45,596 bases of DNA from a virus (taxonomy: Duplodnaviria; Heunggongvirae; Uroviricota; Caudoviricetes). Both the position numbers and the translations under genes were made by a program. Of this stretch, positions 23,715 to 35,761 are shown piece by piece. Location of the stretch: positions 1 through 45,596 of the IMG/VR virus record IMGVR_UViG_2778261121_000003, one strand, 5' to 3'. Under the pieces are notes generated by a model that did not search any database, was not told where the DNA came from, and saw nothing but the letters and a program-made list of their open reading frames with translations. Numbering within the stretch: the stretch's first letter is position 1; every line of letters starts with the position of its first letter.

Positions 23715-23732
23715 ACAAGGATTTTTTTGAAC

Positions 23733-26700
23733 ATGGAACAGTTCAAGAAGAAAAAGTTACCGCTGTTTATTGCAGGTGCGGGTGGTAAAAAAAGCAGCAA
23801 AAGCTCTAGCCGTACACCGGTTGAAGCCGACGATACCGTAAATTCTCGTGCAATGGCCGCTATCCTCGATCTTCTTGGGGAAGGGGTAATTGGCGGCTTG
23901 GTAAATGGCGCAAGATCTATTTTTATCGACGATCTGCCGATTGTAAATGAAGACGGTTCCTCCAACTTCAGCGGAATCACATGGGATTTTCGCGACGGTT
24001 CGCAAGACCAGACTCCAATGTCTGGCTTTGATTTCGTTGAAACGCCTAAATCCGTCAATATCCAGTTAAAAAAAACACATTATGTAACGGTTTCAATCGA
24101 TAACGATGAAGCTGATCGGGTTCGTGTCATCATGAAGTTTCCTTCTTTGCGAAGCATAGATAAAAAAACTGGTGACACGAACGGTACAACCGTTGAGTAC
24201 AAGTTCCAGATAGCAAATGGCGACTCAACATTTGTAGATGTGGTCGCAGAAGGTGAAAAAAGCGTTGGCATTAAGCTAACTGCAAAGAAGACAGGTGTTT
24301 ATTACCGTAGCTATGAGCTGAAGCTGCCTAAGCCTGGACGCGCGTACAAGGTTCGTGTAGTCCGTATTACCGATGATAACAGCAGCCAGTATCTCTATAA
24401 CGATACATGGGTGGACTCAATAGGTGAGATTGTAGATACACCGATGAACTACCCAAACTCTGTGCTGGTGGGTCTGAAGATTAATTCTGAGCAATTTGGT
24501 AGCACCATGCCATCTCGTTCGTATTTGGTGCGTGGATTAAAAATTCGCGTGCCGTCAAACTACAACGAGGCAAGCAACACTTATGATGGTGTATGGGATG
24601 GCACTTTTAAGCTGTTGTCTTCTTCAAACCCTGCGTGGATTCTCTTTGATTTGCTTACCAATGCTCGATATGGCCTTGGTCAGTATGTGTCGGAATCTAT
24701 GATTGACCTCGGCCAGCTATACCAGATCGGTCGATATTGTGACGAAGAGGTTGATGATGGCTTTGGTGGTAAAGAGAAACGCTTTGCAATCAATACGCAG
24801 ATCACCAGTCGACAGGACGCATACCGATTAATTCAGGATATTGCCGGTGCATTCCGCGGTATGGTGTTTTGGGCTGGTGGCATGGTTAACATCATGCAGG
24901 ATAGTCCATCAGATCCGGTAATGATGTTTACCAACTCCAACGTCAAAGATGGACTGTTTACCTATAAAGGTTCTGCGCGTAAAGATCGCCCATCCGTTGC
25001 GCTCGTAACCTACAACAACAAGGAGGACGGTTATAAGCAAAACATCGAGTACGTTGAAGATCAGGACGCAATGCGCCGTTATGGTGAGCGTAAAACAGAA
25101 GTCGTAGCATTTGGATGTACAAGCCGAGGCCAGGCTCACCGAGTTGGTTTGTGGCTTTTGTATACCGCCAGAATGGAGTCGGATGTAATTACATTTACTG
25201 CCGGTTTAGACGCCTCATTTCTGATGCCCGGTGAAACCGTTCTGATTCAGAACAAATATCGTGCAGGTAAACGTAACTCCGGTCGAATTGTGGAGTTTAC
25301 CAAAAACAGCATCACTCTCGATGCGCCTGTGTCGTTAGCTAAAAGCGGGAGCTTTATTCGGATACTGAATCAGGAAGGCAAAATCGTTGAACGCGATGTT
25401 CTTGAAACTGGCGAAAACATAACAAAGGTTACATTTTCAAAAGCCCTGTCGTCAGCTGAAACACCTGTTTTGAACGGTGTCTGGACAATTACAGAACCAG
25501 ATCTCGAACCTATGCGCGTTCGCATCGTTAACATCGCGCAGGGGGAAACTCCGGGTAGCTTTGACATCACCGCTGTTGAGAACAATTCGTCTAAATATGA
25601 GGCTATTGACAATGGTGCAACGCTTATCCCGCAGAATACGACGGTATTGGACCCGACTTACTCCAAGCCATCTAATTTGCAAATCACTGAAGGGACTTAT
25701 CTCTCAAGCCCGGGCAACCTGTCAGTAAAACTGACTGCAACATGGGAAGGGAAATCTCCAGAGTATTGGATCAGTTGGCGACGTTCTGATGAAAACAATG
25801 TATCGAACTGGCAATCGGCGCGTGTAACCGAAGAGCAATACGAAATCGTTAATGTCGCGGAGAATGGACGCTACGACTTCCAACTGTATGCGGTTTCATT
25901 CAACGGTAAAAAAACAGAGATTATCAGTACCGTTTATCAGGTGTTGGGCACGATGACACCGCCGGATGCCCCAACGTCATTAACGGCCGTTGGAGACTAT
26001 CGTAATGTGATACTGAATTGGGTTAATCCAGATTCGGTAGACCTTGATCACATTAATGTTTACGCATCCCAGACCAACAATCTGGATACGGCGAAACTGA
26101 TCGCAGAGTCTGCAAGCACCACCTTTACACATGCTGGTCTTGGGGATAGCGAAACGTGGTATTACTGGGTTCGAGCATCGAACAAGCGCGGCATGTTAAG
26201 TCCTCCGAACTCAAACTTGGGTACAGAGGCGACAACTCGCGATGTACTGTCGTTCCTGGAAGGTAAGATTACATCGTCTGAGCTTGGTCAGGCTCTGCTT
26301 GAGGACATCAACAGCAAAGCCTCTCAGGAAGCAGTTGACGAGTTAAATGAGCATATCAACCAGAGCGTCGAATCTTTGGAGGGGACGGTAAACAACGTTA
26401 AGGAAGATATAGCTGACTTAGAAAAGCAGTTCAGCGACAACATCGCGGACTTTGAAATAACCTTCAATGAGCGCAGCGATGCTTTGGAGAGTGCGCAAAA
26501 CGAGCTTAGAGGTGAGGTTTCTGCAACGATCGATAAGGTCAATGAAGCGTTTGAAAAAATTGATGCTACTAATGCTGCAATTGTTGAAATCGAAAACACC
26601 GTATCTGAACACGATACTGCACTCGCTAACGCAGCCGAGGCGATAAGTGCGGCAAGAAACGAAGCTGCGGCTCTTATTGCTGAGGAGCGCGAGGCTCGTG

Positions 26701-28460
26701 TAGAAGGTGATGCTGCAAACGCTAAACAACTGGAAGTGTTGCAGTCAACGGTAGAGGAAAGCTCCGCTGCCGTTGAAGAAATGAAAAAGACGGTTGCAGA
26801 GGTCGATCGTGCCAGCGCAGAACTTACTACGAACATTGAGGCGTTGGCCAAAACAAATATTGACCTGGCTCTTCGTCAAGATGAAGACCAGCACAAGCAG
26901 ATGGTCAATAACGCGAAGATCTCAACAACACAGAAAACCTTTGCTGATGATATGTCTGCAATGGCTACGAAGGTTGAAGAGATTCGTGTTGAACTTGAAG
27001 AAGACATCAGGAGTAGCATTCTGGAAGAATCTACCGCGCGCGTAGATGGTGATGAAGCGTTGTCAAACCGTGTAACTCAGCTGCAATCTAAGTTTGAAGG
27101 AGATATCAGCGCGGCGATTAGCACAGAACAGGAGGCTCGTGCATCTGCTGATGAGGCTCTGACAACACAGATCACTCAGCTTGAGTCAAAAGTAAGTAAC
27201 GATATCGTAGCGGCAATTAAGGAGGAGCAAGAAGCACGAGCAACGGAAGATTCTGCGCTGGCAAGCCAGATCACTCAACTTCAGGCAAAAGTTGATGATG
27301 ATATTTCTGCTGCAATACGTAGTGAGCAGGAGGCTCGTGCAAACGGGGACTCTGCTTTAGCCCAACAAATAAACCAACTCCGGGCACGGGTTGACGATGA
27401 TATATCAGCAGCCATTACTCAAGAGCAGGAAGCAAGAGCAAGTGCTGATGAGGCTTTATCCCGAGAAATTAACAGTCTGCGAGCGCAGACTGAAACTGAT
27501 ATTGCCGCAGCTGTTGCTGTAGAGACAAAGGCAAGGACGGATGCCGATAGCGCATTATCCAGCCAGATTACATCTCTTACAGCAAAAGCTAATGATCTCG
27601 AGGCGTCTATTGCCAGAGAGACAATTGCTCGAGCAGATGGTGATGAGGCTTTAACAAGAGATTTATCAAGTTTAATAACTCAGACGACGAATGATATTAG
27701 AGCAGATATAACAACTGAAGCACAGGCCAGGGTTGATGCTGACTCGGCATTATCATCGCGGATTACCACACTAACCTCCAAATATAAGGACGACATAAAA
27801 GCTGCGATTGCAACTGAGACGCAAACACGTACAGAGCAGGATGCTGCATTGGCGACTCAAATCACAAATTTAGAGTCTCAAACAGCAGCCAACATTTCTG
27901 CGGCGGTCACAACCGAAACGACAGCGAGAACGCAGGCAGATAATGCTCTGGGTGGTCGAATTGATACTCTTAGAGCTGAGGTGAATGGAAATAGTGCAAC
28001 AATTCAACAGCAGGCGACAGCTATTGCTGATACAAACAGAAAAGTATCAACTGCGTATACGTTGAAAATGGAAACCTCCACTAGCGGAGGACAGAAGTAC
28101 GTTGCAGGCATTGCTCTTGGAATTGACACAACAGGTCTTTCTCAGTTTTTGGTGCAGGCGGATAGATTTGGTTTGGTTAACTCAGTAAACGGGCAGATCA
28201 CCACGCCATTTGTTATCGAAAACAGTATCGCTTACATGAATGGTGCGTATATCAAGGATGGTACAATCACCAATGCAAAGGTAGGTGATCTGCAATCTAC
28301 CAATTTTGTTAGCGGTAGATCTGGATGGCGGTTTGGCAAAAATGGAACGCTTGAGATCAACGGTAATAGCGGAGGTAATGGGCGACTGGTCATAAATGGT
28401 CAGCGGATTGACGTTTATGACGATAACAACGTCCTACGAGTAAGAATTGGCCTTCTGTAA
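23733..28460 (+). CDS. tail tip / central fiber protein (lambda gpJ-like) with internal coiled-coil repeat insertion
   Basis: About 1575 aa; blocks such as NYPNSVLVGLKINSEQFGS, AFGCTSRGQAHRVGLWLL and C-terminal KYVAGIALGID...LSQFLVQADRFGLVN match lambda J; about 10 tandem ~33-aa heptad-like repeats (DDISAAI..EQEARA..D.AL...I..L) in the C-terminal third. Confidence 0.9.
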   Translation: MEQFKKKKLPLFIAGAGGKKSSKSSSRTPVEADDTVNSRAMAAILDLLGEGVIGGLVNGARSIFIDDLPIVNEDGSSNFSGITWDFRDGSQDQTPMSGFDFVETPKSVNIQLKKTHYVTVSIDNDEADRVRVIMKFPSLRSIDKKTGDTNGTTVEYKFQIANGDSTFVDVVAEGEKSVGIKLTAKKTGVYYRSYELKLPKPGRAYKVRVVRITDDNSSQYLYNDTWVDSIGEIVDTPMNYPNSVLVGLKINSEQFGSTMPSRSYLVRGLKIRVPSNYNEASNTYDGVWDGTFKLLSSSNPAWILFDLLTNARYGLGQYVSESMIDLGQLYQIGRYCDEEVDDGFGGKEKRFAINTQITSRQDAYRLIQDIAGAFRGMVFWAGGMVNIMQDSPSDPVMMFTNSNVKDGLFTYKGSARKDRPSVALVTYNNKEDGYKQNIEYVEDQDAMRRYGERKTEVVAFGCTSRGQAHRVGLWLLYTARMESDVITFTAGLDASFLMPGETVLIQNKYRAGKRNSGRIVEFTKNSITLDAPVSLAKSGSFIRILNQEGKIVERDVLETGENITKVTFSKALSSAETPVLNGVWTITEPDLEPMRVRIVNIAQGETPGSFDITAVENNSSKYEAIDNGATLIPQNTTVLDPTYSKPSNLQITEGTYLSSPGNLSVKLTATWEGKSPEYWISWRRSDENNVSNWQSARVTEEQYEIVNVAENGRYDFQLYAVSFNGKKTEIISTVYQVLGTMTPPDAPTSLTAVGDYRNVILNWVNPDSVDLDHINVYASQTNNLDTAKLIAESASTTFTHAGLGDSETWYYWVRASNKRGMLSPPNSNLGTEATTRDVLSFLEGKITSSELGQALLEDINSKASQEAVDELNEHINQSVESLEGTVNNVKEDIADLEKQFSDNIADFEITFNERSDALESAQNELRGEVSATIDKVNEAFEKIDATNAAIVEIENTVSEHDTALANAAEAISAARNEAAALIAEEREARVEGDAANAKQLEVLQSTVEESSAAVEEMKKTVAEVDRASAELTTNIEALAKTNIDLALRQDEDQHKQMVNNAKISTTQKTFADDMSAMATKVEEIRVELEEDIRSSILEESTARVDGDEALSNRVTQLQSKFEGDISAAISTEQEARASADEALTTQITQLESKVSNDIVAAIKEEQEARATEDSALASQITQLQAKVDDDISAAIRSEQEARANGDSALAQQINQLRARVDDDISAAITQEQEARASADEALSREINSLRAQTETDIAAAVAVETKARTDADSALSSQITSLTAKANDLEASIARETIARADGDEALTRDLSSLITQTTNDIRADITTEAQARVDADSALSSRITTLTSKYKDDIKAAIATETQTRTEQDAALATQITNLESQTAANISAAVTTETTARTQADNALGGRIDTLRAEVNGNSATIQQQATAIADTNRKVSTAYTLKMETSTSGGQKYVAGIALGIDTTGLSQFLVQADRFGLVNSVNGQITTPFVIENSIAYMNGAYIKDGTITNAKVGDLQSTNFVSGRSGWRFGKNGTLEINGNSGGNGRLVINGQRIDVYDDNNVLRVRIGLL

Positions 28461-28487
28461 TGTAGAAAAAAATATTTACATCGGTAA

Positions 28488-28508
28488 AAATAAGTAGGTA
28501 CTTACTTT
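28488..28508 (+). promoter_or_regulatory. conserved intergenic motif (AAATAAGTAGGTACTTACTTT)
   Basis: Motif-family member followed by a hairpin (GGTGGGC...GCCCACC) and AAGGAG SD of the tail fiber gene. Confidence 0.35.
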
Positions 28509-28552
28509 ATGGTGGGCAAGGATAGCCCACCAAATCAAGGAGCATATTCAAC

Positions 28553-31500
28553 ATGTGGTACAGGGAAGGTACTATCACATTTACACAGGGTAGTAATACT
28601 CTAGTTGGGGTTGGGACAGCCTGGAACGTAACAGCTAATGGTGTGTTGCCGGGAATGATCGTCATTGGTCCCGACAATAAGCTGTATGAGATCAAGCGTG
28701 TAACCAGTGATACGAATATTGTTCTCTCAGAACCTTATACCGGCGAAACTCAGTCTGAAGTTCCGTGCCGAATCATTACGACCTATGAAGGCGACTTAAC
28801 ACAGTTTAGCGCGCGCTTTACTGCGCTAATGTCGCGTATGTCGGCTGATTCCAAGTCCATGCGCAGTTGGTTGACTGCGCTGGATGAGGTGACAATCGAG
28901 CGTGAAGACGGTACAGAAGTGACCGTTAAGCCGCTGATGCAGATCGTCAACGAGCACAACGAAAACGTTGAGTGGTATAAAAATAACACCGACGCGATTG
29001 ACGCTGCTGGCGACAAAGCTCGTGAGGCGGCGGCCAGTGCTGCCGCAGCAGCAGAAAGCGCCAATACCGCTGGAGAAAAAGCATCTCAAGCGTCTCAAAG
29101 TGCACAGGCTGCAGCTTCGTCACAAAGTGCCGCTAGCGCGAGTGAGTCTGCTTCAAGGGTATCTGAAACGAACGCAGAATTAGCAAAAGAAGCAGCTGCA
29201 CAATCGGAGGCTATCGCATCATCAGCAGCTGCTGCGGCTAATGAAAAAGCTATAGAGGCCACAAATCAGGCAACAACTGCGAAAAATTATGCATTAGAAG
29301 CAAAGTCATCTGAATTAAATGCAAAGGCTTCAGAAGACAATGCGGCTTCCTCTATGGCCGCAGCTGCTGAATCTGCAAGTTCTGCGTCTTCATCAGAGAG
29401 TTCTGCTTCTGCTTCAAAAGATGAGGCTGCACGTCAAGCATCTGAGGCTGCTGGAAGTGCTGTGATAGCGTCAACAAAGGCAACAGAGGCGGAAGGCAGT
29501 GCTACGGCTGCATCTCAGAGCAAAACTGCTGCTGAATCCGCTGCGATACGTGCAGAAGCTGCCGCTGATCGTGCTGAGGAGATTGCCGGTGCAGTTGCGA
29601 TGGAAGACGCAAGTCTTACAACTAAAGGTGTTGTGAAACTTAGTAGTGCTGTCGACAGCACCAGTGAATCGCTGGCCGCAACGCCAAAAGCAGTTAAAGC
29701 AGCCAATGACAATGCAAATAGCAGGTTGGCGAAAAATCAGAACGGTGCAGATATCCAGGATAAATCAGCTTTTCTGGACAATGTTGGCGTCACCAGCCTG
29801 ACGTTTATGAAAAACAACGGAGAAATGCCGGTTGATGCTGACCTGAATGCTTTTGGCCCCGTTGAGGCTTATCTTGGCGTCTGGTCTAAAGCAACATCCA
29901 CCAACGCAACACTGGAGAAAAATTTCCCGGAAGATAATGCTGTCGGTGTGCTTGAGGTTTTTGCAGCTGGCAATTTTGCAGGTACGCAACGCTTCACCAC
30001 GAGAGACGGCAATGTATACATACGCAGACTCGCCAATAAGTGGAATGGCTCTGATGGTCCGTGGGGCATATGGCGTCACACTCAATCAGCTACCCGCCCT
30101 TTGAGTACGGCTATAGACCTGAATACGCTTGGAGCCGCCGAACATCTTGGTTTATGGCGTAACAGTAGCTCGGCTATAGCTTCATATGAACGCAATTATC
30201 CAGAGGAAGGCGGCTTTGCTCAGGGGATGCTTGAGATCCTCGAAGGCGGAAATTATGGAAGAACGCAACGTTATACCACTCGCCGTGGAAATATGTATGT
30301 CCGCTGCCTTGCGGCAAGCTGGGATGCATCAAATCCGCAGTGGGAACCGTGGTTAAGAGTCGGTCATCAGTCAGAGAGCCGTTATTACGAAGGTGATTTG
30401 AATGTTCTAACCGACCCTGGTATTTACAGTGTGACGGGTAAAGCGAGCAATGGTCCATTGCTGGATTCATCCGGTGCAACACTACTAGGGGTGTTAGAGG
30501 TTATCAGACGTTTTGATTACGTTGCCGTATTGCAACGCTATACCACAACAGGGACAGGAACGACAACGAAAGGTCGCTCATATGAACGAGTCTATACCGC
30601 CAGCTCATGGAGCGAATGGCGGGAAGTCTACACCTCGTATTCACTTCCCCTGAATCTGGGTATCGGTGGCGCAGCAGCAAAACTCACCAGTCTGGACTGG
30701 CAGACCTACGACTTTGTGCCGGGCAGTCTGATAACCGTTCGGCTGGATAACATGACCAATATTCCCGACGGTATGGACTGGGGGGTCATTGATGGCAACC
30801 TGATAAACATCGCTGTTGGCCCAAGTGATGATACCGGTACGGGACGCTCAATGCATGTATGGCGCAGCACTGTAAGTAAAGCCAACTACCGCTTTTTTAT
30901 GGTGCGTATTTCAGGAAATCCGGGAAGCCGCACGATCACAGCAAGACGTGTGCCAATTATCGACGAAGCCCAAACCTGGAGTGCTCACCAGACATTCAGC
31001 GGTGGTCTTGGCGGAGAGCTGTCCGGCAATGCTGCTACAGCTACTAAATTGCAGACAGCAAGAACCATCGGTGGTGTAAGCTTCGATGGCACTGCTAATA
31101 TTAATTTGCCTGGTGTTAATGCTGCCGGTAATCAGAACACTACCGGTAACGCGGCCACAGCGACCAAGTTGCAAACTGCTAGAACTATTAACGGGGTGTC
31201 GTTTAACGGCTCTGCGAATATTTCAATACCAACAATTACGTCCAGAGGACGCGTTACTGCGCTCACCGGTACAACACAAGGTGCTGCGACTGGATTGCAG
31301 ATGTACGAGGCATATAACAATGGTTATCCTTCTGATTACGGAAATGTACTTCACTTAAAAGGGGCAACGGCCGTTGGTGAAGGCGAGTTGTTCATTGGCT
31401 GGAGTGGTACAAGTGGCGCTCATGCACCTGTACATGTACGTTCGCGACGAGATACTGATACGGCTAGTTGGTCAGAGTGGGCGCAAGTTTATACGTCCAA

Positions 31501-32320
31501 AGACTCAATTCCGGGTGTTAATGCCACCGGTAATCAGAATACTACTGGCAATGCAGCATCAGCCACAAAGTTACAAACTGCCAGAACAATTGGAGGTGTT
31601 AGTTTTAACGGTACAGCCAATATTAACTTGCCGGGCGTTAATATAGCGGGTAATCAGAATACGACTGGCAATGCAGCATCAGCCACAAAGCTACAAACGG
31701 CTCGAACTATAGGTGGTGTTAGTTTTAACGGTACAGCCAATATTAACTTGCCCGGTGTGAATATAGCGGGTAATCAGAATACGACTGGTAATGCTGCAAC
31801 CGCCACAAAATTGCAGACAGCAAGGAAAATTGCTGGTGTGGCGTTTGATGGCTCTGCCGATATAACTTTGACTGCGACTAATGTTAATGCTTATACGAAA
31901 ACAGAGGTAACAAACCTTCTAAGTTCCTATGTGAAGAGCACTGCTCTTCCAAGCATGACTGTGCGAACTTCCTCTGTTTCTGGTGGGGATATGGGCATGA
32001 GTTTGTCTGCATTCATTAGCCACCTTAGATCAAATGGAGCGTTTAGCAAAAGTTATTGGATTGGCTTTGGCGATGCTATGGGATTCAATGCTGGCAGTAT
32101 AAACAATATAACGGGATTTGGTGCTGTAGAATTAGCAGAATCTATAATCGAAGTTTTTAATCTACCTAACGGTGATTATACAATTCGTTTAACAACGTCA
32201 CACAAAGCTGATTACGGTGGAGTGACAAACGCAATCCTCGTTTATCACTACCGTAGTAATAGAAGTCCGTCAGGTCAATGGCTTAAATTTGCCGGTACTG
32301 TTGGGGCAACAAGCAACTGA
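28553..32320 (+). CDS. long tail fiber protein (repeat-containing)
   Basis: 1255 aa; N-terminal Ala/Ser/Glu-rich low-complexity helical region; five copies of a ~40-aa module NQNTTGNAA(S/T)ATKLQTARTIGGVSFNGTANINLPGVN with near-identical 120-bp DNA repeats. Confidence 0.85.
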   Translation: MWYREGTITFTQGSNTLVGVGTAWNVTANGVLPGMIVIGPDNKLYEIKRVTSDTNIVLSEPYTGETQSEVPCRIITTYEGDLTQFSARFTALMSRMSADSKSMRSWLTALDEVTIEREDGTEVTVKPLMQIVNEHNENVEWYKNNTDAIDAAGDKAREAAASAAAAAESANTAGEKASQASQSAQAAASSQSAASASESASRVSETNAELAKEAAAQSEAIASSAAAAANEKAIEATNQATTAKNYALEAKSSELNAKASEDNAASSMAAAAESASSASSSESSASASKDEAARQASEAAGSAVIASTKATEAEGSATAASQSKTAAESAAIRAEAAADRAEEIAGAVAMEDASLTTKGVVKLSSAVDSTSESLAATPKAVKAANDNANSRLAKNQNGADIQDKSAFLDNVGVTSLTFMKNNGEMPVDADLNAFGPVEAYLGVWSKATSTNATLEKNFPEDNAVGVLEVFAAGNFAGTQRFTTRDGNVYIRRLANKWNGSDGPWGIWRHTQSATRPLSTAIDLNTLGAAEHLGLWRNSSSAIASYERNYPEEGGFAQGMLEILEGGNYGRTQRYTTRRGNMYVRCLAASWDASNPQWEPWLRVGHQSESRYYEGDLNVLTDPGIYSVTGKASNGPLLDSSGATLLGVLEVIRRFDYVAVLQRYTTTGTGTTTKGRSYERVYTASSWSEWREVYTSYSLPLNLGIGGAAAKLTSLDWQTYDFVPGSLITVRLDNMTNIPDGMDWGVIDGNLINIAVGPSDDTGTGRSMHVWRSTVSKANYRFFMVRISGNPGSRTITARRVPIIDEAQTWSAHQTFSGGLGGELSGNAATATKLQTARTIGGVSFDGTANINLPGVNAAGNQNTTGNAATATKLQTARTINGVSFNGSANISIPTITSRGRVTALTGTTQGAATGLQMYEAYNNGYPSDYGNVLHLKGATAVGEGELFIGWSGTSGAHAPVHVRSRRDTDTASWSEWAQVYTSKDSIPGVNATGNQNTTGNAASATKLQTARTIGGVSFNGTANINLPGVNIAGNQNTTGNAASATKLQTARTIGGVSFNGTANINLPGVNIAGNQNTTGNAATATKLQTARKIAGVAFDGSADITLTATNVNAYTKTEVTNLLSSYVKSTALPSMTVRTSSVSGGDMGMSLSAFISHLRSNGAFSKSYWIGFGDAMGFNAGSINNITGFGAVELAESIIEVFNLPNGDYTIRLTTSHKADYGGVTNAILVYHYRSNRSPSGQWLKFAGTVGATSN

Positions 32321-32440
32321 TTTAGATATTATTTATATGGCTGTGAGGTTTAAAAATGCGATCTCACAGCCGTAATCATAGGGATATATTATTGAGTTAC
32401 GAGATACGAATTTGAACAGTCGTTAAACGAAATACTGTAT

Positions 32441-32455
32441 TGATAAGTAAGTACA
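32441..32455 (+). promoter_or_regulatory. conserved intergenic motif (TGATAAGTAAGTACA)
   Basis: Motif-family member upstream of the lysis cassette. Confidence 0.35.
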
Positions 32456-32524
32456 CACCTACAATAAGAGGGTGAAATGTGATATAAGTCCGCCATCCCG
32501 ATTTGACTTTTCATGGAGGAAAAC

Positions 32525-32848
32525 ATGTCGAACGAGATGGCGGGCGTTACAACTGAGCAAGTTGAGCGTATAGCCGCGATCGTTGCTCGGGAGGTTGTTG
32601 GCAAATTAGGTAAAGAGCTACGTGAAGAAATTGGCCAGGAGGTCAACGATCAGCTGAAAACCTACTTTGGTGATATGACCCCGGCGCAACATAGTATTCA
32701 ACACTCCAACCTGGACAAACTCCTTAACCGGTTAGATTCCATCTCAAGTGGGTTCTTTGGCGGCATTGTTTCTAAAATAACGTCGTTCATTATTACCGCA
32801 CTGCTTTTGGGGTTAGCCGCGTATGGCGTAAAAAATGGACTGCAATAA
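32525..32848 (+). CDS. putative holin-like lysis protein (single C-terminal TM segment)
   Basis: Preferred start ATG 32525 with GGAGG SD; hydrophilic N-terminus and C-terminal hydrophobic helix FFGGIVSKITSFIITALLLGLAAYGV; first gene of the lysis block. Confidence 0.4.
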   Translation: MSNEMAGVTTEQVERIAAIVAREVVGKLGKELREEIGQEVNDQLKTYFGDMTPAQHSIQHSNLDKLLNRLDSISSGFFGGIVSKITSFIITALLLGLAAYGVKNGLQ

Positions 32849-32861
32849 CAGGAGATCAAGG

Positions 32862-33554
32862 ATGAAGACTCCGAGAGGCATTCGTAATAATAACCCCGGT
32901 AATCTTGATAAAGGATCACCGTGGCAAGGTCTGGTTGCGAATCCAGACGAACCGCGCTTTTGCACGTTTAAAGACCCTGTTTGGGGGATTCGTGCGCTGG
33001 CGGTGACTCTAATTACCTACCACGACAAACGTCGCGCAAAAGACGGCTCAAGTATCGATACCATTCGTGAAGTTATTGAACGTTGGGCACCGCCGAATGA
33101 AAACAACACTGACGCCTACATTAATGAGGTGTCTAAAGCCGTTGGTGTAACCGCAGACATGATCATCGATCTGCATGATTACGACATCCTTCGACCTTTG
33201 GTTGAGGCAATCATTCGCCACGAGAATGGTCGAGGTCCACTAAAAACGCTGAACACCTGGTATGCGACAGAAGTTATTGAGGAAGGCCTGCGTCGGGCTG
33301 GCGTCGTTAAGTCGGTGAAAACCGTGAAGGCTGTTCCTGTAACTAAAGAAACCGCAGGCGCAACTGTTACCGCAGGGATTGGTCTGGCGCAGCTTGCCGA
33401 TGTTATGCCGCAGGTTTCCGCTGCTATGGATAAGGCACAAGGCCATATCTCTAGCGGGGATACAGTACGCATCATCTTCGGTATTGCCACTATTGTTGTG
33501 GCCGGATTCATTGCCTGGTCGCAGGTAAGAAAACACCAGAAAGGGATGGTTTAA
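32862..33554 (+). CDS. putative endolysin / peptidoglycan hydrolase (family not recognised) with C-terminal membrane anchor
   Basis: Start ATG 32862 with GGAG SD; located between the holin-like gene and spanins; C-terminal hydrophobic helix IIFGIATIVVAGFIAWSQV; catalytic family not identifiable by eye. Confidence 0.4.
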   Translation: MKTPRGIRNNNPGNLDKGSPWQGLVANPDEPRFCTFKDPVWGIRALAVTLITYHDKRRAKDGSSIDTIREVIERWAPPNENNTDAYINEVSKAVGVTADMIIDLHDYDILRPLVEAIIRHENGRGPLKTLNTWYATEVIEEGLRRAGVVKSVKTVKAVPVTKETAGATVTAGIGLAQLADVMPQVSAAMDKAQGHISSGDTVRIIFGIATIVVAGFIAWSQVRKHQKGMV

Positions 33555-33975: not shown

Positions 33976-34497
33976 TTATTCTTCGAACAATTTTTCGATA
34001 GATTTTGTAGGATAGAACAAAGAACGCTCGTTGTTACCAACCAGCTGGATAAAGCCTAAACTTTTATAAAACGCCTTGGCTTTGTCATTTAACGCCTCAA
34101 CGAAAAGTCCATGAATGCCTACAGCAAGAGATGCATTGTACACAACGCGCATTGCATGTGTTACAAGCATTGAGCCAAATCCTTGACCTTGAAGGGACTT
34201 GTCCAAAGCCAGCCTACCCAAAGTAACACTTGGAACATTCCGATAAGGAACCTTCTTTTGTTTGCTTCTTGAAGGTAAGGACTCCTTTTCAAAGCAGCTG
34301 CCTGACAAAGTGTAATACCCTAACACTTTGGGTCTGTCTTCTTTAGTGCAAAGCACATAAGCGCGAAGAATTTTTCCCTCATGCTGCCTTTTTAAGTGGT
34401 TGGTTAAAAAGGCATTTAGTGATTCTTCACCGCAATCAAAACCATTCAAATCATAATCTTTCTCTCCAGAGAAAATTTCTATCTTTATATTATCCAC
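33976..34497 (-). CDS. GNAT-family acetyltransferase toxin (TacT/AtaT/KacT-like)
   Basis: 173 aa; GNAT motif LQGQGFGSMLV; size and sequence character typical of GNAT toxins paired with DUF1778 antitoxins; GTG start 7 nt after the antitoxin stop, with GGAG SD. Confidence 0.8.
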   Translation of the reverse strand: MDNIKIEIFSGEKDYDLNGFDCGEESLNAFLTNHLKRQHEGKILRAYVLCTKEDRPKVLGYYTLSGSCFEKESLPSRSKQKKVPYRNVPSVTLGRLALDKSLQGQGFGSMLVTHAMRVVYNASLAVGIHGLFVEALNDKAKAFYKSLGFIQLVGNNERSLFYPTKSIEKLFEE

Positions 34498-34504
34498 GAG
34501 TAAA

Positions 34505-34774
34505 CTACTCCATGCTTTTCAGACGATCAGCAGCTCGTTTCAGCTTGTCGTTCGGTGCCGGAGGATTGCTTATAGCGTCCATAACCAGATTCCAGGATTC
34601 TTCATTCAGAACTAGTCTACGGTGTTGCTCTATAACTTTCACGGCACGTTCAGATGCACTGCTAACCATAAACTGAGTAATGCTCTGGTTAGACATTGCG
34701 GCAGCTTCCTCGATGATGCTTTTATCGTCATCGGTTAATCTCAAATCGATGCGCTGCTTTTTTAGTGCTGACAT
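34505..34774 (-). CDS. DUF1778-type (RHH) antitoxin (TacA/AtaR-like)
   Basis: 89 aa from ATG 34774 (AGGAGG SD); RIDLRLTDDDKSIIEEAAAMSNQSITQFMV...NPPAPNDKLKRA matches the DUF1778 antitoxin pattern; directly upstream of the GNAT toxin. Confidence 0.8.
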   Translation of the reverse strand: MSALKKQRIDLRLTDDDKSIIEEAAAMSNQSITQFMVSSASERAVKVIEQHRRLVLNEESWNLVMDAISNPPAPNDKLKRAADRLKSME

Positions 34775-34894
34775 GTATTCCTCCTGATGGCCGTGATGTA
34801 GGAAGGCCATCAATCTCCTCTGTTCAAACTGAGTTTTCGACTCAAAAATTACTTTAAAAGGCTATAGCCCATTACGTGTGCATTATCAAATTGT

Positions 34895-35092: not shown

Positions 35093-35761
35093 ATGACCAA
35101 GATCTTTGTGGTTGGCGGCACAAAGGGCGGGCCTGGCAAATCCACCGTTGCCCAGCAAATTGCCGTTTGCCTGAAAGTCAAAAAGAAGAAGAAGGTTTAT
35201 ATTACCGATATAGATATTCAGCGCACGACAACGAGCTGGTGTGAAGACCGTCGACAGAACGAAGACCTTGAGCTGATTCCTTTTGCATACGTTCAGGATG
35301 ACATCATTAAGCACCTAAAATCGCTTCAGGGTAGAGCTGAGTATGTAGTGGTAGATGCTGGTGGCTTTGACTCCGAAATTCAGCGACAAGCGATGCTGAT
35401 GGCCGACGTTATCATTATCCCGCTGCGTCCTAAGCGTCGTGATTTGAAATCTCTGCGTGACATCGATCCTATTATCGACAATGTTCGCAATGTAAACGAT
35501 AAAGTGAAGGTACGCGCGGTCATGAACCAGTGCCCGGCTTTGCCATCACAAGTATCTCGCATTCTGGCGGCTAAAGAGATTGTCGAGACGTTTGGCATCG
35601 AGTCTGCGCCTGTCAATCTATATAACCGCAACGTCTACGATGATGCGGAAGAGTCTGGTCGTTCTATCTTTGAAATGACCGGTAGCGAGCGCGACAAAAA
35701 GGCGGAAGCCGAGTTTGAAGAATTTGTAGATTATCTGTTGAGTCTGGAGGAAGAAGAATAA
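35093..35761 (+). CDS. ParA/MinD-family partition ATPase (type Ib, ParF-like size)
   Basis: 222 aa; deviant Walker A VVGGTKGGPGKST. Confidence 0.85.
   Translation: MTKIFVVGGTKGGPGKSTVAQQIAVCLKVKKKKKVYITDIDIQRTTTSWCEDRRQNEDLELIPFAYVQDDIIKHLKSLQGRAEYVVVDAGGFDSEIQRQAMLMADVIIIPLRPKRRDLKSLRDIDPIIDNVRNVNDKVKVRAVMNQCPALPSQVSRILAAKEIVETFGIESAPVNLYNRNVYDDAEESGRSIFEMTGSERDKKAEAEFEEFVDYLLSLEEEE

Follow-up and report, generated by a model that had tools for sequence, protein, structure and literature searches.

The fibre gene of the window (the whole stretch of 45,596 nt analysed here) contains a set of similar 120-nt units towards its 3′ end, and the question they raise is what these units are and how two of them came to resemble each other so closely. 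A scan for self-identity of at least 85 in 100 nt at lags of 30-599 found the array to be the sole such site in the 45.6-kb window, far beyond chance. Very probably, the five repeats are copies of a widespread 40-residue shaft module in an SSU5-like side tail fibre, a reading that takes in a trimeric fold as well as a part in crossover and conversion.

The open reading frame at 28553-32320 (plus strand) encodes 1255 aa and was assigned as the side tail fibre gene of an SSU5-like phage-plasmid from the ORF list and its translation, matches to PHROG tail-fibre families and synteny with Escherichia phage Cyrano, in which the gene order is the same and the homologue is annotated as a tail fiber protein. 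An identical fibre protein is present on contig NNWF01000034.1. The gene is flanked on one side by that of a J-like central fibre (tip protein; 23727-28460) and on the other by a holin gene (32513-32848). The original prediction had spoken of a long tail fibre; this T4-type label is not borne out, the protein being a lambda-Stf-like side tail fibre of a siphovirus-type phage-plasmid. No tail fibre assembly (chaperone) gene lies directly downstream of the fibre ORF, where the holin gene follows after a gap of 192 nt; P2-like and P1-like loci carry an assembly gene at the corresponding place. The two extra genes found between fibre and holin in relatives were considered as fibre chaperones and rejected, as they match an "outer membrane protein" and a "membrane associated protein" family.

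Like the mosaic P1 S / P2 H / Mu S group of side tail fibres, the window fibre shows homology segment by segment. Its N-terminal part (28553-29220, plus strand) is common to SSU5-like fibres, with 92-94% nucleotide identity to the related loci L001-L003 and L005-L010; this homology stops at 29133-29220, within an Ala/Ser-rich stretch that measures 204 aa in the window fibre and 309 aa in the relatives. It is followed by a P2 H-like segment with knob-like domains (29655-31048, plus strand; Megablast, query nt 1103-2496), about 89% identical to P2-type gene H, which stops 24 nt into the first module. The C-terminal tip domain (aa 1107-1255; 31871-32317, plus strand) is akin to the distal domain of S′, a tail fibre of Mu: residues 1144-1234 align with residues 215-304 of the PDB 8ju3 chain (phmmer domain i-Evalue 5e-07), and Mu S and S′ (PDB 5yvq and 8ju3) together match the fibre at aa 347-415 and 1144-1234. 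A search for homologues of the tip domain returned five proteins. Relatives also bear Mu-S′-like "tip" domains in mid-fibre. In the protein database, many of the fibre homologues are "partial" entries from contigs 1-2 kb long.

Within this ORF, five in-frame modules of 40 aa share the consensus GNAA[T/S]ATKLQTAR.I.GV.F[D/N]G..[N/D]I, with GNAA motifs starting at nt 31025, 31145, 31547, 31667 and 31787 (aa 825, 865, 999, 1039 and 1079). The five copies of about 40 aa that had been predicted are thus confirmed, although not as one tandem array: two modules and then three lie on either side of a 282-nt knob at 31229-31510. All features of the array are on the plus strand. Module 1 (GNAATATKLQTARTIGGVSFDGTANINLPGVNAAGNQNTT; aa 825-864) occupies 31025-31144, and module 2, of which only the core is present (aa 865-892), occupies 31145-31228 and is 100% identical to its orthologue L002_4. 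The knob domain, 94 aa by translation, is weakly similar to the upstream P2-H-like domains through a WSEW..VYT motif, and the resulting 134-aa spacing between the knob-flanking modules also occurs in relatives. A linker half-unit, PGVNATGNQNTT (31511-31546, PGVN register), leads into module 3 (aa 999-1038; 31547-31666), which is followed by module 4 (aa 1039-1078; 31667-31786) and by the core of module 5 (aa 1079-1106; 31787-31870), the joint to the tip domain. Tandem Repeats Finder places a repeat at 31529-31839 with period 120, 2.6 copies, 85% matches and a score of 461, and a repeat search pairs 31025-31222 with both 31547-31744 and 31667-31864 at 72%.

Comparison of 34 diverse modules shows invariant residues at positions G5, N6, A7, A10, K12, L13, F24 and G26, and all five window copies bear them, at a spacing of exactly 40 aa within each run. 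A search of 1.84 billion proteins with the module profile retrieved 5,163 cluster representatives at E<=1e-3; the proteins carry 1-12 modules, and in 144 representatives a spacing of exactly 40 aa is the commonest. Modules were found in P1/P7, SSU5, Goslar, 9g, T4-like phages of Acinetobacter and Aeromonas, and cyanophages; the homologues in P1, P7, SSU5, Goslar, 9g and others are annotated as tail fibre. Unrelated phage groups have the module in their side or long tail fibres, and it is present even in a capsid decoration protein. Some phage records annotate the GNAxTAxKL...FDGSxNI module as "tail fiber repeat", a label that is uncurated; a literature search for the motif string gave no match. 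No family in Pfam or NCBIfam covers the modules, nor did an experimental atomic structure of them turn up. For want of a curated model of this very common fibre block, genes that contain it are labelled merely "phage tail protein". PF03406 (Phage_fiber_2, "phage tail fibre repeat") was rejected: its sole match, at aa 354-395 (66 bits), is far upstream, and the module region gave none at E<=10. A below-cut-off match to Lipocalin_7 (aa 775-885) and matches to DUF6160 and ATPgrasp_Ter (E>0.01) were regarded as noise.

The 308-aa repeat region gave no phmmer match in the PDB at E<=10. The 36-column module profile matched residues 98-133 of the phage L decoration protein Dec (6e3c, E 9e-7) and the PhiM1 tail fibre gp47 (8vbx, E 5e-4). 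An AlphaFold2 monomer model of aa 813-1120, built from a 42-sequence alignment, was poor (mean pLDDT 54.6, pTM 0.25), its only recurrent element being a hairpin at TI-GG-VSF; a poor monomer model is to be expected of an obligate trimer. In Dec, the spike (residues 99-134) has no fold as a monomer and supplies nearly all trimer contacts; AlphaFold2 models the trimer with three antiparallel strands in each protomer, and the circular dichroism data fit an antiparallel beta-sheet (PMC11398494; PMC6449081). By analogy, each module most likely takes up its fold, a small intertwined beta unit, solely on trimerisation. Judging from the homology of the modules to the Dec spike, a stack of them would form thin rod sections between the globular knobs and ahead of the receptor-binding tip.

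The similarity among the five copies is very uneven. In the GNAA register, modules 3 and 4 (31547-31666 and 31667-31786) are identical at 110 of 120 nt (91.7%), with 10 differences that are synonymous without exception, so that both encode the same amino-acid sequence; the high-identity block proper runs from about 31529-31668 against 31649-31788. "Nearly identical", the wording of the original prediction, therefore overstates a similarity that is nonetheless high, and the coordinates given for the pair (31495-31612 and 31615-31732) start about 35 nt early and yield only 93 of 118 identical positions (79%). The remaining module pairs show 54-74% nucleotide and 52-92% amino-acid identity, with 12-25 synonymous codon changes per 40 codons; these copies are old and strongly constrained by purifying selection, which preserves the amino-acid sequence of the modules and lets silent sites drift.

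How modules 3 and 4 came to be alike can be judged from relatives, in which the units at the same positions (A and B, respectively) can be compared. On the reading nearest to hand, a single 120-nt unit was simply duplicated in tandem in the recent past and then acquired 10 silent substitutions, without conversion. This would account for the 92% identity and for differences that are synonymous only, and one relative, L010, does carry a perfect and evidently recent 240-nt duplication of A-B. Both units, however, have positional orthologues in at least seven relatives, where 24-30 of 120 nt separate A from B, and simple recent duplication is for this reason not the best reading; we consider it quite unlikely. 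Nor does an older, clock-like duplication predating the split fit, since it would yield the same A-B distance in every lineage, whereas orthologous A and B units differ at 24-30 of 120 nt in five relatives and at 10 in the window. At the 21 sites with fixed A-versus-B differences in these five relatives, copy 3 reads AABAAAAAABBBBBBAAAAAA and copy 4 AABBBBABBBBBBBBBAAAAA. The states occur as blocks, not as scatter (permutation p = 0.007 and 0.004 for so few runs): the window units stay distinct as A and B at sites 33-48 and 87, but have in common B-type sites 54-69 and A-type sites 98-117, so that the position-A unit (module 3) is B-type at 54-69 and the position-B unit (module 4) has A-type 5′ and 3′ ends. 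Modules 3 and 4 are thus block-wise patchworks of A and B types, and this distribution points to gene conversion or unequal crossing-over between them. Of the two origins originally proposed, recent duplication or ongoing recombination, recombination is thus favoured for this pair and recent duplication is not. The modules that flank the pair (1, 2 and 5) match their orthologues at 98-100%. Region 31325-31800 as a whole departs further from L002 than do its two flanks, so part of the difference of the window from the A and B types reflects lineage divergence or an imported patch and not conversion.

It is also conceivable, though unlikely, that the copy number, or the mixed appearance of units 3 and 4, results from mis-assembly of a short-read draft. 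The window is contig NNWF01000034.1 of draft assembly GCA_002486825.1, and an exact search of viral and genome contig collections found no second independent sequence with its copy-4/copy-5 junction, so that both the patchwork and the copy number rest on one sequence; the "partial" homologues on short contigs point the same way, as do perfect 240-nt duplications such as that in L010, which would collapse in short-read assemblies. Against this, exact repeats at lag 120 do not exceed 38 nt in the window, below usual final k-mers and reads, which makes the assembly risk here low; the A and B units of relatives are only about 76% identical and so not chimerisable by an assembler; the window units have private variants at sites 21, 25 and 45; and the ORF is intact, with an array as long as that in seven complete plasmids. 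The hazard for short-read assembly that had been foreseen accordingly applies to relatives such as L010 and hardly to the window. Programmed diversification, by a diversity-generating retroelement with its template/variable repeat pair or by a P1/Mu-type invertible fibre segment, is extremely improbable. The 3′ parts of tail fibre genes are indeed targets of such systems, and the P1 and P7 fibres with the same module sit in invertible C segments. Here, however, both copies are in frame, coding, adjacent and identical in protein, and the mismatches are mixed in type with no restriction to adenine (T>C, T>G, C>T, A>C, A>T, T>A, A>T, G>C, C>T, T>G), so a retroelement target was rejected. An invertible segment comparable to P1 cin/C, Mu gin/G or p15B Min was likewise rejected: the best inverted repeats around the gene (28400-33000) are only 17-28 nt long at 74-88% identity, the holin gene comes next and there are no alternative fibre ends downstream.

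Recombination among the modules, the reading preferred here, can be followed beyond this pair, since the number of post-knob modules varies among relatives. Where a homologous knob and the same tip bound the array, it comprises one module in L003, three in the window, L002 and L005-L008, and five in L010; L009 also has three post-knob modules, but its homology to the window stops at 31931. Complete layouts differ too, from 3+1+1 in Cyrano to 4+knob+3 in most plasmids, 2+knob+5 in L010 and 3+knob+3 in L004. Over 93 protein clusters, one module was counted in 70, two in 17 and three in 6. Identical arrays in relatives would have told against variation at this locus; the arrays differ. Between adjacent units of one gene, unequal crossing-over and gene conversion alter the module number, and in the window lineage they have, on the evidence of the diagnostic sites, partly homogenised modules 3 and 4 to 92%.

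The limits of homology to other fibres fall at the same elements. Homology to five loci (L002, L005, L006, L007 and L009) starts exactly at 31025, and further breakpoints lie at 31037 (two loci), 31048 (P2 H), 31221 (L004), 31744 (P1 S), 31751 (start of homology to Cyrano, L003 and plasmid matches), 31868 (end of the first alignment of L010) and 31931 (end of L009 homology). Nearly all breakpoints with relatives, P2 H and P1 S are thus on a module or within about 60 nt of one, bearing in mind that they are not independent events, many relatives being of common ancestry. At least 19 different sequences come after the last module in homologues. These positions mark the modules as crossover joints at which fibre segments are exchanged: recurrence of the module within one gene and across unrelated fibre genes provides short stretches of DNA homology, and between genes the modules join proximal and distal segments of P2-H, P1-S and SSU5 type. 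The modules themselves are shaft or linker elements and not the receptor-binding tip, so that the link to host range originally predicted would be indirect, through the joining of distal domains.

One may go further and regard the module as a self-contained, copy-number-tunable trimerisation unit, a universal connector whose DNA doubles as a built-in splice site for stringing knobs and tips; we offer this tentatively and think it somewhat doubtful. If true, the definition of the module fold and the setting of fibre reach by module number would be new. In practical terms, the boundaries at 31025, 31751 and 31870 represent candidate natural in-frame splice points for exchanging receptor-binding parts, and arrays of one, three and five modules form a ready series for relating shaft length to adsorption. 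For genome quality control, fibre module arrays merit a copy-number check in short-read assemblies, the window array itself being unlikely to have collapsed.

The repeats are an ordinary, well-precedented feature and not a new system; the current view of phage fibre evolution is unchanged, and the window provides a clear example of it. For the distal tail fibre genes of T-even phages, recombination between conserved motifs was reportedly described by Tetart, Desplats and Krisch in 1998, as cited in PMC10879196, and motif rearrangements in fibre genes are said to have been noted by Sandmeier (1994) and Haggard-Ljungquist (1992), both cited in PMC3945230. As in the window, crossovers there fall on short conserved motifs and bring adhesin segments of unrelated phages into new combinations, but the T-even motifs (His boxes and glycine-rich motifs) differ in sequence from the window module.

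The phage L Dec C-terminal spike (PDB 6e3c) carries one copy of the motif, NAETADKLSTARTI...SFDGSANVTI, in the region that forms the trimerisation element of Dec (PMC11398494). Dec differs in being a capsid protein with a single copy that has a 7-residue insertion in the hairpin, and its spike lacks an experimental atomic structure.

Among fibres, the SSU5-like side tail fibres (Cyrano and plasmids such as pZ1323HEC0016-2) share gene position, N-terminal domain and tip domain with the window at 92-95% nucleotide identity, but the middle of the gene is replaced and the module counts are unlike those of the window. P2-like H resembles the window over the 1.39 kb of the H-like segment and has one module where the homology stops; this single module is followed by another distal part and a tail fibre assembly gene, whereas the window changes at that very point to a P1-S-like module array. 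The tail fibre S of P1, P7 and related P1-like plasmids has the same succession of modules, a 94-aa knob at 134-aa spacing and further modules (2 + knob + 2 in P1-like S), and a P1 record is 78% identical to window nt 30977-31744. Unlike the window, P1 and P7 are myoviruses in which the fibre gene extends at its 3′ end into the invertible C segment, has alternative ends there and is followed by an assembly gene; the window fibre has neither an invertible segment nor an adjacent assembly gene, and it differs from P1 S in its N-terminal part and tip.

The repeats lie in a side tail fibre gene (ORF 28553-32320, + strand; 1255 aa), flanked upstream by the gene for a 1577-aa J-like central tail fibre and downstream by holin and endolysin genes. 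Escherichia phage Cyrano, an SSU5-like phage-plasmid, shows the identical gene order, its fibre homologue being labelled tail fiber protein. The product is a side tail fibre from a siphovirus-type element and not of the T4-style long type; the label "long tail fiber" in the original prediction is corrected here. A Phage_fiber_2 match occurs at aa 354-395, outside the repeats, and the C-terminal tip domain (31871-32317) is similar over aa 1144-1234 to the Mu S' distal domain (8ju3). In P2-like and P1-like loci an assembly gene directly follows the fibre gene, whereas the window lacks a tail fibre assembly (chaperone) gene directly 3' of the fibre (32321-32512), despite its Mu S'-like tip. The relative loci L005-L010 carry two additional small genes between fibre and holin (4384-5246 in L005, same position in the others), which are missing from the window and L002; they look like morons, since they match the PHROG families "outer membrane protein" and "membrane-associated protein". 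The exact fibre protein is recorded once, on the 45,596-nt contig NNWF01000034.1 of draft assembly GCA_002486825.1. The window therefore corresponds to this contig in full and accounts for about 40% of a roughly 108-kb phage-plasmid. Nothing above about 95% identity over the 3' part of the fibre was found in the phage, plasmid and complete E. coli genome collections. Beyond the lysis genes, on their 3' side, come a toxin-antitoxin pair on the - strand (33976-34813; GNAT-acetyltransferase toxin, TacA-type antitoxin) and then a ParA partition gene (35093-35761), an arrangement that fits a phage-plasmid lifestyle.

The predicted repeats are real. The motif GNAA[ST]ATKLQTAR occurs five times in the fibre, at aa 825, 865, 999, 1039 and 1079 (nt 31025, 31145, 31547, 31667 and 31787), in runs of two and three modules with a spacing of exactly 40 aa inside each run, separated by a 94-aa domain, the knob (31229-31510, + strand). 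Tandem Repeats Finder detects 2.6 copies with a period of 120 at 31529-31839 (85% matches, score 461), and the window holds no second repeat of at least 85/100 identity at lags of 30 to 599. Modules 3 and 4 share 110 of 120 nt, all 10 differences being synonymous. The near-identity originally claimed applies to this pair but was overstated, and its coordinates, which are shifted, yield only 79%. The remaining pairs show 54-74% nucleotide identity and up to 92% residue identity, and 12-25 of every 40 codons differ synonymously.

In five relatives, the orthologous units at the positions of modules 3 and 4 (A and B, respectively) differ from each other at 24-30 of 120 sites, as opposed to 10 in the window. 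Scored at the 21 positions where A and B show fixed differences, the pattern is AABAAAAAABBBBBBAAAAAA for module 3 and AABBBBABBBBBBBBBAAAAA for module 4. Both are B-type in the centre (sites 54-69) and A-type at the 3' end (sites 98-117), and the A/B distinction survives at sites 33-48 and 87 alone; label permutation for five or fewer runs gives p = 0.007 for module 3 and 0.004 for module 4. For modules 1, 2 and 5, identity to the L002 orthologues is 98-100%. The region 31325-31800 as a whole is more diverged from L002 than the flanking sequence, so part of the difference in modules 3 and 4 reflects lineage divergence or an imported patch. The best reading of the pattern is that neighbouring units exchanged sequence in the window lineage, through gene conversion or repeated unequal crossing-over.

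Module number also varies. The window has the arrangement 2 + knob + 3; L002, L005, L006, L007 and L009 have 4 + knob + 3, L008 has 1 … 2 + knob + 3, L010 has 1 … 2 + knob + 5, Cyrano (L001) and L003 have 3 + 1 + 1, and the P1-like plasmid L004 has 3 + knob + 3. The same tip is preceded by one module in L003, three in the window and five in L010, in which the A-B pair is duplicated with zero differences. Identical arrays in relatives, an outcome that would have counted against the original prediction, are therefore not observed. Among 93 knob-containing protein clusters, one module follows the knob in 70, two in 17 and three in 6.

These data bear on the rival explanations. The original prediction invoked recent duplication or ongoing recombination; recombination and array variation are borne out, but a plain recent duplication producing modules 3 and 4 is improbable: the presence of both A and B orthologues in the relatives contradicts it, and so does the block pattern. 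Duplication before the lineages split is disfavoured because it predicts equal A-B distances in all lineages, which are not observed. An assembly artefact in the array is marginally more credible yet still unlikely: the window is a draft contig and its array has no independent copy, but the exact repeats do not exceed 38 nt, the units carry private variants, and the array length is common to seven complete plasmids. The predicted assembly hazard is accordingly small for this array. In public databases, homologous fibre fragments are in many cases "partial" proteins from 1-2 kb contigs, as would be seen if fibre genes disrupt short-read assemblies, probably because several prophages in one genome share modules and fibre segments. 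A diversity-generating retroelement or invertible segment was also considered, and rejected as having almost no likelihood.

The fibre gene is mosaic. Its 29655-31048 segment is about 89% identical in nucleotides to P2-type gene H, and 30977-31744 is 78% identical to a P1 fibre gene; P2-like H has a single module, located exactly where homology to the window stops. In a comparison with ten relatives, 5' homology covers the N-terminal part and ends at 29133-29220. Five loci regain homology at 31025, where module 1 begins, two at 31037, and Cyrano and L003 at 31751, in the PGVN lead-in to module 5; further alignments end at 31221, 31868 and 31931. Among the PLSDB matches listed, those sharing only the tip start at query 1052 or 1055 (window nt 31751 or 31754), and in proteins with the knob-plus-module scaffold at least 19 distinct sequences follow distally. 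Each junction in the 3' half falls on a module or within about 60 nt of one, although the junctions are not independent events, as the relatives share ancestry.

The 5' homology stops within an Ala/Ser-rich stretch (28991-29602; aa 147-350; 57% A+S), which spans 204 aa in the window versus 309 aa in 9/9 SSU5-like relatives and looks like a second length-variable, recombination-prone linker. Within the P2-H-like segment, 29850-31024 (aa ~430-824) holds three consecutive knob-like domains of ~100 aa each, with the common motifs G.LE.…QR.TT…W..W; the knob between modules 2 and 3 is weakly similar to them (WSEW..VYT). Mu-S'-like "tip" domains (…TTAQ…GAFN…W…TGCG…AGAVIEV…TIR.TT…) occur mid-fibre in L002 (aa ~410-560) and Cyrano (aa ~815-930), with module arrays on both sides, suggesting fibres with multiple potential binding domains along their length.

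The module family has no coverage in Pfam or NCBIfam. With modules 3-5 as the query, phmmer retrieved 5,163 proteins at E<=1e-3 (550 at E<=1e-30) from 1.84 billion cluster representatives; among the 144 best, a spacing of 40 aa predominates clearly, with 1-12 modules per protein and tandem runs of up to 7. Matches by tblastn extend to P1/P7, SSU5, Goslar, 9g-like phages, Shewanella phages, cyanophages, and T4-like phages of Acinetobacter and Aeromonas. A 36-column profile built from 34 diverse modules hits the decoration protein Dec of phage L (6e3c, residues 98-133, E 9e-7) and the PhiM1 tail fibre gp47 (8vbx, residues 317-353, E 5e-4). Dec residues 99-134 form the trimer spike, which is unfolded in monomers and provides nearly all trimer contacts; an AlphaFold2 trimer model has three antiparallel strands per protomer, and circular dichroism data agree with antiparallel beta-sheet (PMC11398494). 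The spike was modelled earlier on the T4 gp34 beta-helix (PMC6449081). Our monomer model of the module region is poor (pLDDT 54.6), its sole recurring element being a hairpin at TI-GG-VSF, in keeping with an obligate trimer. Each module may thus represent one trimeric beta unit of the fibre shaft.

As a whole, the observations are probably best explained by shaft modules that also serve as recombination joints. Stacked modules would form thin rod sections between knobs and ahead of the tip, and their sequence, conserved in protein and partly in DNA, would thereby supply short homologies for recombination. In E. coli, RecA-dependent exchange requires roughly 25 nt of identity, a length reached by the longest exact runs at lag 120 (27, 38 and 29 nt). 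In side-tail-fibre genes, phage recombinases are known to exploit homology that is short and diverged (PMC3945230). Exchange between genes at modules would reassort proximal and distal fibre parts, while exchange within a gene would alter module number and homogenise neighbouring units. Such recombination may bear on host range, for which the array had been proposed as a hotspot.

The window fibre conforms to the classic view that tail fibre genes are mosaics recombining at conserved motifs, to which the work of Haggard-Ljungquist (1992) and Sandmeier (1992/1994), both cited in PMC3945230, and of Tetart et al. (1998), cited in PMC10879196, is reportedly relevant. To this view it adds a further member, a tidy case of conversion inside an array, and a copy-number series of 1/3/5 across relatives.
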